Virus record (IMG/VR): IMGVR_UViG_3300020057_000339
From: an uncultured virus (IMG/VR IMGVR_UViG_3300020057_000339)
Taxonomy: Duplodnaviria; Heunggongvirae; Uroviricota; Caudoviricetes
DNA length: 64,000 nucleotides
Strand: one strand, 5' to 3'
The notes beneath the pieces are model-generated. The model did not search any database, was not told where the DNA came from, and saw only the letters and a list, made by a program, of their open reading frames with translations. A program made the position numbers and the translations under genes. Of the stretch, positions 2,152 through 46,359 are shown piece after piece (the stretch's first letter is position 1; each line of letters begins with the position of its first letter).

Positions 2152-2649
2152 ATGAAGATCATCAAACAGGACATGCTTGCTCTCACGGATGGCGTTCTCT
2201 TCCATCAGGTCAACTGCCAAGGCATCATGGGGGGCGGCATCGCCTACGCACTCGCCAAGAAGTTCCCAGGTCTTGAAAAAGAATATCAAGATTGTATTGC
2301 CAAGTGGATTAAGTCAGTAGATAACGAACGTCTCAGTGGTTATCTTACAGAAGACCTTGCTAACGACGTGATGCTTGGCAAAACGTTCATGTGGACGGTA
2401 CCTAATCACAAGTACCTCAAAATCGCAAACGTTTTTGGCCAAGGTTACATTTCCTCTAGGTGGCGAATGACTAGCTACGATGCCACGGCAAGAGCCTTTG
2501 AGTCGCTTGCTCCGAAACTTGACAAAGATGTTCCTCTTTACTTCCCCTTCAAGATGGGATGCGGCCTTGGCGGCGGAGAGTGGGGTATTTACTTGGCCAT
2601 TATCGAACACTATTTCCCTGATGCCATAATCTGCCAACACAATATTTGA
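2152..2649 (+). CDS. Macrodomain protein (ADP-ribose hydrolase-like)
   Basis: HQVNCQGIMGGGIA, IANVFGQ and FPFKMGCGLGGGEW motifs. Confidence 0.9.
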   Translation: MKIIKQDMLALTDGVLFHQVNCQGIMGGGIAYALAKKFPGLEKEYQDCIAKWIKSVDNERLSGYLTEDLANDVMLGKTFMWTVPNHKYLKIANVFGQGYISSRWRMTSYDATARAFESLAPKLDKDVPLYFPFKMGCGLGGGEWGIYLAIIEHYFPDAIICQHNI

Positions 2650-2775: not shown

Positions 2776-3555
2776 ATGGTTAATCTATCCGATTTCAAGG
2801 TCTCTCACTATCCCGATGGTCACAAGCACATTGTGTCAACGATGGATCTCAAGGGCTCCACTACACTTAGTGCTAGTATCCGTAATTTCGACGACCTCTT
2901 CTTGATCGCTCAGGTTTTGGAGATTCACCCGGAGATCAGGCACCTTCAAGTCAATTACTTGCTGGCTGCTCGCTGTGACCGCCGCTTCTCCCCTGGCGAG
3001 GCTATCGACATCAAGATTGTATGCGATTACTTGTGTAGCCTTCGCCTCGAAACGATTGATGTCGTCAAGCCGCACAATCCTGTGGCATTGAAGAAATATC
3101 TGCCCAATGCCAGTATTGTCGAGCCCACGATCCGACTTGTGGACTTGGCTCTCAAGGATATTGGCGACGACAACGTTTGTTTCGTGTCGCCCGATGCCGG
3201 TGCTGCGGCCTGGGTCAGTAAGCAAATCCCACTCAACGGCGATTTAGTGCAATGCAGCAAGCGTCGTGACGAAAACGGCAAGGTTGTTGGCACGGAAATA
3301 AACACCACCTCCACTAACGTTTGTATGTACGATAAGTTCGTGATTGTCGATGACCTTTGCGATGGCGGTCGCACTTTTACAGAGATCGCGAAAGCAATTC
3401 ACTTGCGTTCTCCGAAGGCAAAGGTATACTTGGTCGTAACGCATGCGATCTTCTCGAATGGCCTTGCCGTCTTTGACGGCAAGATCGAGCGAATCTACTG
3501 CACGGACAGTTTTGCAACATTTGACGACCTGATGATTAGGCAACTAAAACTATGA
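2776..3555 (+). CDS. Ribose-phosphate pyrophosphokinase-like (candidate ADPR-PP synthetase, Adps)
   Basis: YPDG, ARCDRRF, SPDAGA, IVDDLCDGGRTF, VTHAIFS motifs. Confidence 0.88.
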   Translation: MVNLSDFKVSHYPDGHKHIVSTMDLKGSTTLSASIRNFDDLFLIAQVLEIHPEIRHLQVNYLLAARCDRRFSPGEAIDIKIVCDYLCSLRLETIDVVKPHNPVALKKYLPNASIVEPTIRLVDLALKDIGDDNVCFVSPDAGAAAWVSKQIPLNGDLVQCSKRRDENGKVVGTEINTTSTNVCMYDKFVIVDDLCDGGRTFTEIAKAIHLRSPKAKVYLVVTHAIFSNGLAVFDGKIERIYCTDSFATFDDLMIRQLKL

Positions 3556-3740
3556 ACGATCTAACGCTAGAAAACTTTCACGAAAAGACGGGGTTCCGTT
3601 TTCGTGTTAGCAACGAGAAGCTTAAGCCTAGAAAGCCTGAAGAGGTTTGTGTACTTGTCATAATAGTTACGATGTTGTTTTGTCTTCCTGTAATATTGTT
3701 CATGGTCTGTAAATCTTTTAATGACTACATCTCCCAATGA
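3552..3740 (+). CDS. Chimeric short ORF: internally deleted copy of the 7662 gene 5' end plus a hydrophobic tail
   Basis: 3552-3616 nearly identical to 7662-7726; 3618-3637 identical to 7806-7825. Confidence 0.5.
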   Translation: MNDLTLENFHEKTGFRFRVSNEKLKPRKPEEVCVLVIIVTMLFCLPVILFMVCKSFNDYISQ

Positions 3741-4570
3741 ATACTCATCCGCTTCATAGTATCGACTGGTACAAGGCCGACCACCGTCGCCAATACCCCG
3801 AGGGCACGAGCCTCGTTTTCTCGAACTTCACCCCGCGATCCTCACGGATCGACGGAGTGGAATCCGTGGTATTTTTTGGCCTTCAATACTTCATTCAAAG
3901 ATTTCTTGCTCACGAGTGGGATGTCAACTTCTTCTCGCGACCTGTTGAAGAAGTGGTCGCGAGGTACAAGCGTCGTGTAGACAATGCTCTTGGCAAGGAT
4001 ACCGTCCCGATGGATCACATCAGGGCGTTGCACGCCCTGGGATATCTGCCGGTTCGAATTCTCGCACTACCAGAAGGTAGTCGAGTTCCGATTGGGGTAC
4101 CTCCGGTAGTCATTCACAACACGCACCCGAGCGGCTTCTGGCTCCCGAATTACCTCGAAACGATTCTGTCTGCGACGCTCTGGCAACCCTGCACGTCAGC
4201 CACGATCGCGGCAGAATACAAGAAGGAATTTGTGCGAGCGGCGAAAGAGACCGGAGCTGACGTTGGTTTTACTTCCTTTCAAGGTCACGACTTCTCGTTC
4301 CGTGGCATGCCCGGTATCGAAGCTGCCTGCACGAGTGGTGCGGCTCACCTTTTATCCTTTGTCGGATCGGACACCGTTCCAGCGATTGACTTCCTTGAAC
4401 AGTATTACGGTGCCGACTCCGACAAAGAGCTTGTCGGATGTAGCGTGGCGGCAACCGAACATTCTGTCGCCTCTTTAGTATCAATGGATAGGGCAGCTAT
4501 CATCACTTCTGTAGAAGAAGAGTGGAATGAAGCGTCACAAACTTGGAAGTTCATTAGATCGCTTCCTTGA
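3737..4570 (+). CDS. Nicotinamide phosphoribosyltransferase-like (NadV/Namat), N-terminal half
   Basis: DWYKADHRRQYP, NFTPRS, VFFGLQY, HDFSFRG, ATEHSV motifs. Confidence 0.88.
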   Translation: MNTHPLHSIDWYKADHRRQYPEGTSLVFSNFTPRSSRIDGVESVVFFGLQYFIQRFLAHEWDVNFFSRPVEEVVARYKRRVDNALGKDTVPMDHIRALHALGYLPVRILALPEGSRVPIGVPPVVIHNTHPSGFWLPNYLETILSATLWQPCTSATIAAEYKKEFVRAAKETGADVGFTSFQGHDFSFRGMPGIEAACTSGAAHLLSFVGSDTVPAIDFLEQYYGADSDKELVGCSVAATEHSVASLVSMDRAAIITSVEEEWNEASQTWKFIRSLP

Positions 4571-4585
4571 TAAGTTATCTTTTGC

Positions 4586-4614
4586 TTGACATTCCGAACA
4601 CTCCGTTGTATACT
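4586..4614 (+). promoter_or_regulatory. sigma70-type promoter between the two NAMPT halves
   Basis: TTGACA-17 bp-TATACT. Confidence 0.75.
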
Positions 4615-4625
4615 AATACATTACC

Positions 4626-5402
4626 ATGACTCGAAAACGAATTCGCACTCTTAACGAACACGAAAAACTCTTCTATGGCGAATTAGAGTATTTCAAGCGT
4701 CTACTTAGTGTCTACCCTACAGGCATCGTTAGTGTCGTATCAGACACTTGGGACTACTGGGGTGTTCTAACTACCATCCTCCCGCAATTGCGGGAGGAAA
4801 TCATGGCCCGAAATGGTAAGTTGGTGATTCGACCGGACTCAAGTCCTAAGACGCCACTGGAGATCATTTGCGGAGACCCTGACGCCGCACCCGACAGTCC
4901 GGAATTCAAGGGATCTGTTGAAGTACTTTGGGAGCTTTTTGGCGGCGTCACGAATGCCGCAGGCTTCAAGGAATTGGATTCGCACATCGGTCTGATCTAC
5001 GGCGACAGCATCACCTTGCCTTTGGCAAGAAAGATCAATCAAGGGCTTAAGGCTAAGGGCTTCGCAAGCGTAAATTGGGTCGCTGGTATCGGCAGCTACA
5101 CATATCAGTATGTAACTCGCGACACATTTGGTTTCGCGATGAAGGCCACCTTCGGTGTGGTTAACGGCGAGGAACGAGCCATTTTCAAAGACCCCAAGAC
5201 AAACAAGGGGGCTTTCAGCAAGAAGTCTGCCAAGGGACTGATCGCTGTCTACGAAGCTAATTTCGGCAAGTCATTTGGGATGCGACAGGAAGCTTCGTGG
5301 GAACAGGTCAACTCCTGTGCCTTCCAACTTGTTTACGAAAACGGCATGCAATACAACACAACTACGCTCGCTGAAATCCGAGCCCGACTTAACCATGAGT
5401 GA
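4626..5402 (+). CDS. Nicotinamide phosphoribosyltransferase-like, C-terminal half
   Basis: YPTGIVSVVSDTWDYW, VIRPDS, GLIYGDSIT, TRDTFGFAMKAT, KKSAKG motifs. Confidence 0.88.
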   Translation: MTRKRIRTLNEHEKLFYGELEYFKRLLSVYPTGIVSVVSDTWDYWGVLTTILPQLREEIMARNGKLVIRPDSSPKTPLEIICGDPDAAPDSPEFKGSVEVLWELFGGVTNAAGFKELDSHIGLIYGDSITLPLARKINQGLKAKGFASVNWVAGIGSYTYQYVTRDTFGFAMKATFGVVNGEERAIFKDPKTNKGAFSKKSAKGLIAVYEANFGKSFGMRQEASWEQVNSCAFQLVYENGMQYNTTTLAEIRARLNHE

Positions 5403-7661: not shown

Positions 7662-8027
7662 ATGAATGATCTAACGTTAGAAAACTTTCACGAAAAGACG
7701 GGGTTCCGTTTTCGTGTTAGCAACGAACAGTTCGCACGTATCGAAGCTGGTACGTTTACACGAGAACAGGCATTTGCTGAGTTTATTGCGGCTGGTGGAG
7801 CCGATAAGCTTAAGCCTAGAAAGCCCGAGGTTCCTGATTCGGTCTATCTTTGCGATGGCTTGACGATCGCAAATTTCTCGGAAAGAGTGCAGGCGGCTAC
7901 GGGCGTGGTCCGTAGATTTCGCATGAGTCGTGAACAATGTCAACGACACAAGGACGGCACGCTCACTCGTGAGCGGGCATTACAAGAAGTTATCGCTGCT
8001 ATCGCAGCCAAGGAAATAGTAGTATGA
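7662..8027 (+). CDS. Hypothetical protein with two internal repeats
   Basis: LTxxNFxE..RFRxSxEQ..R...GTxTRExA occurs twice; promoter TAGACG(7614)-17 bp-CATAAT and GGAG SD upstream. Confidence 0.75.
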   Translation: MNDLTLENFHEKTGFRFRVSNEQFARIEAGTFTREQAFAEFIAAGGADKLKPRKPEVPDSVYLCDGLTIANFSERVQAATGVVRRFRMSREQCQRHKDGTLTRERALQEVIAAIAAKEIVV

Positions 8028-9592: not shown

Positions 9593-10825
9593 ATGGAACA
9601 TCTTGAGCTTTGCCGCCGCATTCAAGCGGTTGGTGGCCACCCCCTTGTGGTTGGTGGGGCCGTCCGCGATCACGTAATGGGTCGCGAGTCGAATGACGTG
9701 GATATTTGCGTCATTGGCCTGACGATGCCGCAGTTGCTTGCAGCCTTTCCAGAAGGCGATGCCGTAGGTAAGGATTTTCCTATCGTTATCGTTGCGGGTA
9801 TCGAAATTGCCCTAGCTCGTACAGAACGCAAGGTCGGTGCTGGTCACACGGGATTCGTCTGTGATACGGGCGGCATCACGATTGAACAAGATTTGTTCCG
9901 TCGTGACTTGACGATTAATGCTATGGCTATGGAACCGTTCACGGGTGAGATTATCGACCCGTTCGGTGGTCGTAAGGCAATTGCTGAAAAAAGACTGGCT
10001 CCCGTCAGCAAGCACTTCGTTGAGGATCCGTTGCGTGTGTTGCGTGCCGCAAGGTTCGCGGCCCAACTCGGATTCCAGTCTACGCAAGAGCTTATGAATA
10101 TGTGCCAATTCTTGCGTTTCGAGCTTCCCACGCTCGCTGGCGAGCGTGTTTTTGAGGAGCTTATGAAGGCGTTACGTTCGGCCAAGCCGAGTGTATTCTT
10201 TGAGGCACTTCGAGACTTCCAATGTTTGGCAGAAGTGTTCCCAGAAATCGCTGCTCTGGCTGGACGAGTCCAACCAGAGAAGCATCACCCGGAGGGTGAC
10301 GCATTCGTTCACACGCTTCTAGTCGTGGATCGAGCACGCGAACTCGGGGCGGATGACGCCACGATGTTTGCTGCATTGGTCCACGATCTAGGAAAGGCCG
10401 TGACTGACGACGATAACCTACCGCACCATTACAATCATGAGGCGTTGGGTATACCATTGGTACATAAATTCTGTGATCGTTTAAAGGTGCCCAACGCACT
10501 CAGAGATGTTGGTGTGGCTACGTCACGAGAGCACCTGAATATCCATCGTTTCGATTCCTTGAGGTCTACGACAAAGGTACGACTCCTTGATCGACTGGGG
10601 GCCGCTCACGGCAACACGCTAATTGAATGCGTTACGCTTGCTTCGCAGGCAGACGCTCAGGGGCGTGGACCCGACTTTCATGACAAGCCCTATCCGCAGC
10701 GTCAAGCTGTGCTAGACGCTGCGGATAGATTCCGCAGCGTGAAGGGCGATCAGTTCGCTAATTTACGAAATGGCGAAGCCATTAAGCAAAAGATGGAGCA
10801 AGCACGAGTAAAGGCACTCGCATGA
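9593..10825 (+). CDS. cca: tRNA nucleotidyltransferase (CCA-adding) with HD domain
   Basis: VGGAVRD, DVD, DLFRRDLTINAMA, EDPLRVLRAARF, HHPEGD, LVHDLGK. Confidence 0.92.
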   Translation: MEHLELCRRIQAVGGHPLVVGGAVRDHVMGRESNDVDICVIGLTMPQLLAAFPEGDAVGKDFPIVIVAGIEIALARTERKVGAGHTGFVCDTGGITIEQDLFRRDLTINAMAMEPFTGEIIDPFGGRKAIAEKRLAPVSKHFVEDPLRVLRAARFAAQLGFQSTQELMNMCQFLRFELPTLAGERVFEELMKALRSAKPSVFFEALRDFQCLAEVFPEIAALAGRVQPEKHHPEGDAFVHTLLVVDRARELGADDATMFAALVHDLGKAVTDDDNLPHHYNHEALGIPLVHKFCDRLKVPNALRDVGVATSREHLNIHRFDSLRSTTKVRLLDRLGAAHGNTLIECVTLASQADAQGRGPDFHDKPYPQRQAVLDAADRFRSVKGDQFANLRNGEAIKQKMEQARVKALA

Positions 10826-45078: not shown

Positions 45079-46359
45079 TTATACACGAATAAATTTCACA
45101 TTGGCCTGAAACGACTGAATGTCTTTTCCGCCAGCATATGTAACGCCACTTCGTAATGCTCCCTGATATCGTTCAATTAATTTTTCAACTGACTCTCCAA
45201 TATCAAGATATCGAACACTGCCCTCGGGACATGTACCGGCTTTCATACCACGCCATTTGTCCTGTACGTAACGACTGGCCATACCGGCATATACTTTTTT
45301 GGCCACACCATCAACATGCACAATTTCTGCTGCTGATTCTGGACAACGAGCAAAAATAGACCCGGCCATCACAGCGTTCGCACCAGCAGCAATTGCCTTA
45401 GTGTAATCAGCGGGTTCTCGAATACCACCATCACTGATCATTGGCATGCCAAAATCACGACATATAGCGGTCATTTTAGCAATAGCAGAAAATTGTTTCT
45501 CTGTACAACCAGCAGTATTTTTTGTTTCACATGCCAAGCCTTGTGCAATACCTAATTTTATACCATCAACATAATCATTAAAATATGGTATAGCTTCTGG
45601 ACAAACAAAATTGCCAACAATAATTTTTGTTGTTGGACTAAATACTTTGATGGCCTTAGCGGTGTCTAGCACGCCAGAACTAAAACCATGTGCAATATCA
45701 ATAACTACTATAGTTGCACCTGCACGAATTAATTTTTTTGCCAATTGCACTTGAACGTCTCCGACGCCAACCGAAACGGCAATATGCTCTAAGTAACTAG
45801 CCATGGATTTTGCAGATTGTATAAGTATATCATCGGGTGCGGCACGATGCATAATGCCCATAGCACCATATTTACTAAGTAAAATACAAAAATCAGCATT
45901 AACAACAGTAGACATGTTTGAGGCGACCAAAGGCACATTAAGCCAAACGCCACGACAAATCTCGCTTTTTGTATCTACATCAAGTCTAGATTGACATTGA
46001 TTAAATGACTGTTGAATTGCTATATCTTCAAAACCTAATGAGCGTGGCATCAAATCAGATCGTAATCTATATTGTCCAGACGAGCGATCAAAGAAAATAA
46101 AACCGCTTTTTACAGCCTGCATAGCTACGGACTCTAATTGTTTATGTAATTCACTATGGTCAACGTCTGATGCACACAAATGTAAATTATGGGCGAGATT
46201 ATTTAATTTGTCTCCATCAATATAATGAACTTGTTCAACATTGGTCAATGGGCGTTGCAATACTTGCTCCATCACAACTCTATGTTGTCTGCGATATTCT
46301 ATACCGTCATGCACTAAAATATAACCGTGTTCATCGAATGAATAACCCTTACGAATCAT
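45079..46359 (-). CDS. IMPDH/GMP reductase-family protein with N-terminal HNH-like domain
   Basis: QHRVVME..VHYIDGDKLNN, then LGFEDI, PLVASNMSTV, DIAHG, SDGGI, KAIAAGA..VMAGS, YAGMAS, PEG. Confidence 0.85.
   Translation of the reverse strand: MIRKGYSFDEHGYILVHDGIEYRRQHRVVMEQVLQRPLTNVEQVHYIDGDKLNNLAHNLHLCASDVDHSELHKQLESVAMQAVKSGFIFFDRSSGQYRLRSDLMPRSLGFEDIAIQQSFNQCQSRLDVDTKSEICRGVWLNVPLVASNMSTVVNADFCILLSKYGAMGIMHRAAPDDILIQSAKSMASYLEHIAVSVGVGDVQVQLAKKLIRAGATIVVIDIAHGFSSGVLDTAKAIKVFSPTTKIIVGNFVCPEAIPYFNDYVDGIKLGIAQGLACETKNTAGCTEKQFSAIAKMTAICRDFGMPMISDGGIREPADYTKAIAAGANAVMAGSIFARCPESAAEIVHVDGVAKKVYAGMASRYVQDKWRGMKAGTCPEGSVRYLDIGESVEKLIERYQGALRSGVTYAGGKDIQSFQANVKFIRV

Follow-up and report, generated by a model that had tools for sequence, protein, structure and literature searches.

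The window analysed here is the whole 64,000-nt stretch of an uncultured Caudoviricetes virus (IMG/VR record IMGVR_UViG_3300020057_000339). It is phage DNA encoding a DNA polymerase, a primase, ligases, a ribonucleotide reductase and five tRNAs, and it carries a NARP1 module in which the NAMPT-like enzyme Namat is divided over two genes. In NARP1, Adps and Namat rebuild NAD+ from ADP-ribose and nicotinamide (bioRxiv 10.1101/2024.02.11.579819; PMC12774641). Our analysis suggests that the two products probably form a working (N+C)2 Namat, whereby the docking of a tail on the first chain to a leader on the second would help, and that they would be assembled like NrdA-a/b of Aeromonas phage Aeh1. 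The locus is composed as follows.

2776 to 3555, plus strand: PRPS-like gene, presumed Adps, 259 amino acids (aa), phrog_619 with E 5.6e-45.
3737 to 4570, plus strand: Namat-N, 277 aa, ending in SVEEEWNEASQTWKFIRSLP, then TGA TAA.
4469 to 4567, plus strand: putative cassette-derived tail of 33 residues, predicted to fold as a helix followed by a beta-hairpin, with the motif V-E-E-x-[FWY]-[DN]-E-x4-W.
4535 to 4585, minus strand: putative relic of an HNH endonuclease gene in antisense orientation, comprising the stop and the 16 codons before it (AKDNLSRKRSNELPSL).
4586 to 4614, plus strand: sigma-70-type promoter-like site of the C half, TTGACA-17-TATACT, 11/12 consensus, its TTG abutting the relic.
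4626 to 4676, plus strand: putative cassette-derived leader of 17 residues with a basic start, motif R-[IT]-R-x-L-x-E-x-E-x-L.
4626 to 5402, plus strand: Namat-C, 258 aa, first residues MTRKRIRTL.

An earlier, sequence-only reading of the window had proposed a NAMPT-like gene split into two open reading frames (ORFs) in different frames, and the ORF calls agree. Namat-N and Namat-C are separated by 55 nt and cover consecutive parts of PRK09198 (positions 4-238 and 240-462 of 465). PDB entry 9w5x is matched by Namat-N over residues 12-260 (264 bits) and by Namat-C over residues 256-488 (237 bits). The break had been placed right after ATEHSV, which was mistaken: it lies 33 codons downstream of that motif. 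IMG/VR contig L001 (98% identical) has the same stops, gap and start, and its extensions differ by two synonymous changes. In each of the runs X3, X8, X11 and X12 one contig spans 4560-4630 with no indel or joint listed (4/4 runs), where assembled contigs rather than raw reads were used; a continuous ORF was looked for in these contigs and not seen. Clusters at 90% contain eight N-half and five C-half proteins. An assembly error or frameshift was rejected as the cause of the split because the junction is the same in L001 and in the contigs of four runs. The split of Namat is biological. The nearest record, G001, is a virus record of 152 kb and 96% completeness; it has one match to the Namat C half and no second copy.

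The layout resembles that of NARP1 and NARP1-AP: the Nampt-like gene, which has the Namat clamp motif, comes after a PRPS-like gene, and a candidate macro-like gene is nearby; unlike here, the Namats characterised in the cited NARP1 work are single chains. The order of the two genes stands as first read, except that a 62-codon ORF (3552-3740, plus strand) intervenes. Namat-N, which bears the nicotinamide-binding residues, retains D13, Y15, R40, F189, S190, R192, D215, A242 and the His of ATEH in 9w5x numbering, which agrees with that used for Namat in PMC12774641; the clamp-loop stacking residue is R37 of the window, aligned to R40. Namat-C retains R306, D308, G360 and D361 in the 9w5x alignment, A362 being Ser here, and also bears RPDS and GDSI. 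The clamp-helix motif (GS-aromatic-x-x-x-aromatic-x-TRD), which is Namat-specific according to PMC12774641, is present as GSYTYQYVTRD at C-half residues 156-166. With the signature of that paper in place, both halves do retain their family motifs as stated earlier. Since the catalytic residues are divided between Namat-N and Namat-C, each active site needs both halves. Set against L016, the halves differ by 12 synonymous and 7 non-synonymous changes, which gives an omega of about 0.18 (P 2e-4), and tail and leader are unchanged in 7/7 variant proteins. The halves look to be under purifying selection; with the mapped active-site residues kept, they are seemingly not decaying, in line with the earlier reading.

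Tail and leader are conserved in sequence and charge. In an alignment of 29 tails E261 is found in 29/29, W270 in 28/29 and V259 in 26/29 rows, and in the leader R5, R7, L9, E11, E13 and L15 are invariant in 5/5 rows, two of them near-identical. The net charge is negative in 29/29 tails and positive in 4/4 leaders, L175 being omitted from the leader count. For the window itself, the tail described before as acidic does end in TGA TAA and has the acidic patch EEEWNE, but the net charge of the whole tail is only -2; the basic start of the leader is evident, as the first nine residues of Namat-C amount to +4. GC content at third codon positions is 0.36 in the tail, 0.35 in the leader and 0.58 in the Namat core, i.e. 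the insert is AT-rich within a GC-richer gene.

In L092 (745-969) and L085 (1706-1900), tail and leader lie within one continuous Namat chain. This form is either a re-fusion after nuclease loss or the source of the peptides. An AlphaFold2 model of the 75-residue L092 insertion (mean pLDDT, i.e. predicted local distance difference test, 73) has helix 5-17, strands 22-28 and 33-36 in the tail, strand 44-48 in the leader and helix 52-71, which fits a tail hairpin completed by a leader strand. A fold search with the model was uninformative, giving helix-pair matches only (best Z 4.5). L054, L113, L116 and their kin have a shorter loop related to the insertion. The tail profile gave four matches among 1.84 billion representatives, all repeat-like or unrelated. 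Word searches with the window tail and leader alone returned only P0002 and the window's own proteins, and tblastn of the tail region against cultured phages gave no clear tail match among the best 40 of 599 records.

Judged from sequence, the window is the nuclease-lost state of an HNH cassette and the gap is its scar. L348 has an intact antisense nuclease of 220 aa that ends in WALDNLRKGRKIPDPLPLS before its stop, in the same register as the window relic, and its stop falls on the identical TCA codon within the tail. The score of the relic against five nuclease C-ends is reached by 2 of 127,948 8-mers in the six frames of the window, and the chance of such a score anywhere in the 217-nt insert is about 0.003; the second 8-mer, at 9961, is without PLW context. 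Where the relic would have its Trp codon stands the TTG belonging to the -35 box, hence the deletion ends at the promoter. No member of the HNH family of L308 and L348 (phrog_1035) was found in G001.

The complete arrangement is seen in L308 (Zavarzinella formosa DSM 19928) with a PRPS-like gene, an N half with window-type tail, the nuclease and a C half beginning with MKTRIRELTEQEKLAYGEL. Its nuclease is intact (215 aa, sense), overlaps both halves and is 44% identical to that of L348. This split NARP1 cassette occupies 908-4011 of L308, and the flanking genes seen are not like phage structural genes. The nuclease family corresponds to phrog_1035 'endonuclease VII' (L308, and the L028 nuclease read with TAG as Gln) and has no Pfam match. 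Decayed copies are present as well: L091 has a frameshifted antisense nuclease with TTGACA-17-TATAGT before the C half, and on the minus strand of L175 an internal deletion has left only the two nuclease ends, equivalent to 6-29 and 195-211 in the L348 protein. Where this site has a tail of another type, weak HNH, GIY-YIG-like or NUMOD4-HNH matches are seen, and L104 (203-1118, reverse orientation) has a second tail type with a gap of 7 nt and no nuclease.

The phage of L028/L048 appears to read TAG as Gln, under which the nuclease is open. In its Namat, a LAGLIDADG-like ORF lies in a second interruption, after SRDSLG, which is probably a group I intron missed by Rfam. Intein-like insertions elsewhere in Namat occur in L019 after RPD and in L063 after GSY, the latter also being split at the loop.

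The promoter-like site announced for the gap was located at 4586-4614, 11 nt upstream of ATG 4626, before which no Shine-Dalgarno-like run was found. We infer that the C half may be read from its own short-leader transcript. Separate promotion of both halves had been claimed: directly upstream of the C half there is a consensus promoter sequence, directly upstream of the N half there is none. Four other near-consensus sigma-70 sites on the plus strand of the first 10 kb (491, 1136, 8427, 9559) have an ATG only 5-6 nt away, which suggests leaderless transcripts. The gap site is in keeping with this promoter style, and inverted repeats overlap the sites at 1136 and 8427.

The same split was recovered in viral, metagenome and species-genome searches and is thus common to relatives, as had been anticipated. 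Among viruses the pattern VxATEHSVA[STC] had 41 matches, of which 37 are NAMPT-like: 29 of these are continuous and eight stop 34-44 residues on, one being the window's own kin. Among 118 metagenome matches 70 are NAMPT-like, with 48 continuous, two cut at a locus end and 20 stopping; six of the latter are window kin and one (L128) stops inside the core. L128 and L263, which stop within the core, were excluded from the count of cassette splits. Species genomes yielded 41 matches (27 continuous, one split). With VxATEHSVM, 119/120 loci are continuous and one has a frameshift (120 examined of about 830). A tail-inclusive profile, which enriches for tailed proteins by design, listed 120 proteins: 31 end 32-59 residues past A[TS]EH and 28 of them have the window tail type. 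The window-type acidic tail is common to 28 protein clusters.

These tails sit on differing cores. Two uncut genes are closest to the window core (80.6% and 77.6% identity) and group with it (99 SH-aLRT); no other split allele is more than 69% identical to it. For the remaining tail-bearing cores, identity to an uncut neighbour reaches 97%. In a quick, unrooted tree (LG+G4, insert removed) of 74 of the 288 cores, from which loci with fewer than 200 residues upstream such as L169, L175 and L180 are left out, the tail label needs 22 changes, 13 of them forced by starred branches. A single clade of tail-bearing cores is rejected (approximately unbiased test, p-AU 6e-39). A label-shuffle control was uninformative (185/500 as low), the uncut rows having been chosen as nearest neighbours of split rows; the reading relies on the starred sister pairs and the approximately unbiased test. 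Since the tail-bearing cores are not one clade, tail, nuclease and leader seem to travel as one cassette. The unrooted tree is compatible with repeated gain or with gain and reversion by recombination; because a nuclease is present in the cassette, spread by homing appears to be the simpler reading.

We propose that a homing cassette, in which an antisense HNH endonuclease gene was flanked by DNA coding for the tail and for the leader, invaded the NARP1 Namat gene and took the place of the short loop that follows ATEHSV, the catalytic motif. Its nuclease gene would later have been deleted back to the last 16 codons, which would persist owing to their overlap with the tail and its stop. Namat would be made as two proteins because an HNH gene was inserted and then almost wholly deleted. 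The gap promoter would drive the C half, and the chains, made separately, would assemble to an (N+C)2 enzyme with composite active sites, aided by the basic leader strand being added as third strand to the acidic tail hairpin. Adps and the split Namat could then rebuild NAD+ from ADP-ribose and nicotinamide against an NAD-depleting defence.

The closest parallel is Aeromonas phage Aeh1, in which mobE splits nrdA and the enzyme cannot do without its oppositely charged tails (PMC3045599). As in nrdA-a/mobE/nrdA-b, a free-standing HNH nuclease seemingly cut the gene, active-site residues are spread over two chains, and oppositely charged C- and N-terminal peptides were added. Aeh1 works without splicing (PMC3045599), and the window sequence argues against splicing too. 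However, the enzyme is another one, the polarity is reversed (acidic tail, basic leader in the window) and the window nuclease is lost. Moreover, Aeh1 is a single case whereas the window peptides are a family on many cores; peptide function has been shown for Aeh1 only.

In Pectobacterium phage CB7, NAMPT is divided into CB7_244 and CB7_246 around the HNH gene CB7_245, and reverse transcription PCR shows no splicing (PMC7344957; one sentence there mislabels CB7_202, given to NrdA in Table 3). It shares with the window the enzyme family, the PRPS-like gene upstream and a break in the same loop. The CB7 paper, which predates NARP1 and did not assay the activity, likewise proposes two-chain assembly (PMC7344957). 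In contrast to the window, CB7 keeps its nuclease, which is sense and of another kind, and its tail is helical as in L039 and L063 and unrelated to the predicted hairpin tail of the window. 'Fractured genes' with split inteins (PMC2677866) also have gene halves around a free-standing nuclease, the gp41-7 locus being nuclease-less, but those halves are rejoined by trans-splicing and the window is without intein motif.

Several points weigh against the proposed two-chain enzyme. It is drawn from sequence comparison and predicted structure. In group D (L039, L063, CB7) the splits lack a basic leader, and as CB7 is the one tested for splicing, charged ends are not necessary for every split at this site. 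The window tail is weakly charged, and 25 of the 28 tail-bearing proteins come without DNA context in our data. The relic motif test was made after the relic had been seen. No consensus promoter was found before the C half of L348, hence the window promoter may have arisen in its own lineage. The omega value rests on 19 changes in a single pair without transition correction. The L092 model was built on 11 rows, some misaligned past the Trp, and its output gives strands and not strand pairing.

The two chains might work through the native barrel and dimer surfaces, with tail and leader being passengers or serving the nuclease gene by overlap, stop or translational coupling. The loop after ATEHSV accepts many unrelated insertions in continuous genes, the charged pair is missing from group D, and tail 3' ends do overlap the nuclease gene. 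Yet the tail motif VEE..E..W is kept whether the nuclease is sense, antisense or lost, and lies mostly upstream of the overlap; together with the essential tails of Aeh1 (PMC3045599) this renders the passenger role unlikely. That the insertion killed Namat and the pieces are recent pseudogenes is more improbable still. Anti-defence genes are dispensable on many hosts, which would permit such a loss, but omega is about 0.18, every mapped active-site residue is retained, 28 clusters combine homologous tails with divergent cores, and a promoter-like site directly precedes the C half.

Restoration of a single polypeptide by RNA splicing, by ribosomal bypassing as in T4 gene 60, or by protein trans-splicing would be the least credible explanation. 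The gap of 55 nt is near the 50 nt of gene 60, a continuous tail-leader form exists (L092), and the charged ends are reminiscent of split inteins. Bypassing is opposed by two in-frame stops in the C frame, by the missing codon to match the take-off CCT before the ATG and by a fold of the gap that is not unusual (z -0.57). For splicing, no Rfam match was obtained in 13 loci, a weak argument as the likely L028 intron was missed too, and CB7 NAMPT is unspliced (PMC7344957). Trans-splicing would call for elements not seen here: there is no Hint family match and no HN-[CST] junction. Furthermore, tail ends vary freely in length. A split intein as such was rejected (no Hint match in Pfam at E 0.01, extensions of 50 residues in total, leader meeting the core at ..KLFYGELEYF), and the statement that the extensions lack intein motifs is supported by the absence of any intein family match. 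A group I intron was likewise rejected, with a gap of 55 nt and no Rfam match in L001. Such a length is too short for a ribozyme core.

Beyond the two-chain enzyme, it is conceivable, albeit doubtful, that tail and leader act as a portable heterodimerisation tag sufficient by itself, a hairpin that a strand of the partner chain completes, and that the HNH endonuclease moves this tag between Namat genes. If so, the element would neutralise itself when the protein assembles, which would be a third route next to introns and inteins, its life cycle would consist of invasion, decay, nuclease loss leaving the enzyme with two genes for good (window) and re-fusion (L092, L085), and the tag would join unrelated proteins too. 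On the basis of one enzyme, nuclease-derived tails were proposed as a possibly general means of neutralising gene fragmentation (PMC3045599). As a homologous peptide pair occurs on 28 clusters with unrelated cores, in intact, decayed, lost and fused states, this idea is testable by swapping tails and leaders between alleles.

Known in kind are nrdA of Aeh1 and the non-splicing HNH-split NAMPT of CB7 at the same site. No paper on a nuclease-less split Namat or the window tail family was found in a literature search that covered subscription journals thinly, and the main text of the NARP1 preprint (bioRxiv 10.1101/2024.02.11.579819) contains none of the words 'split', 'endonuclease' and 'intein'. 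As far as this search reaches, what would be new is a nuclease-less end state in which a relic can still be traced, together with the decay series, a tail family shared by differing cores and the intact allele in a cultured bacterium. The split Namat is probably functional, and the window would represent an end point, at which the enzyme takes two genes and only 16 antisense codons reveal the cause. NARP1 surveys that require a full-length Namat will miss such phages. An intact split allele is present in a cultured planctomycete, Z. formosa DSM 19928.

The neighbourhood of the module holds one further candidate component.

2152 to 2649, plus strand: macro-domain-like gene, candidate Adpp (ADPR-1''-phosphate phosphatase of NARP1-AP), phrog_335 'phosphatase' with E 4.8e-27.

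It has no Pfam match at 0.01, including none to the Macro model, and we presume the 'macro' label from its motifs. A promoter-like site lies ahead of it at 2118-2146, and a tRNA-Leu is located between it and the PRPS-like gene. The product is 30% identical to that of a gene adjoining Namat-C in L348, where it follows Namat-C. NARP1-AP includes the ADPR-1''-phosphate phosphatase Adpp (bioRxiv 10.64898/2026.01.28.702374); if the gene at 2152-2649 encodes this activity, the module would be NARP1-AP.

Adps is characterised by the ADPR-site residues R87, H121, D161, D212, D213 and D216, the catalytic K185 and a remodelled PP loop (PMC13586617). The PRPS-like product of 2776-3555 reaches 66.9 bits against TIGR01251, below the model cut-off of 113; by eye only, RCDRR, PHN, SPDAG, SKRR and VDDLCDGG were recognised as matching motifs. 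A PDB search with it gave no Adps chain among the matches.

The ORF at 3552-3740 is a partial copy of the ORF at 7662-8027 (plus strand) with an internal deletion. It varies by strain, being the same in L097 and L302, longer in L127 and not found there in L001; run X8 skips 3558-3671. At 45082-46359 (minus strand) a single ORF joins an HNH-like stretch, its first 100 residues (phrog_19902, E 9e-20), to a dehydrogenase (phrog_9582).

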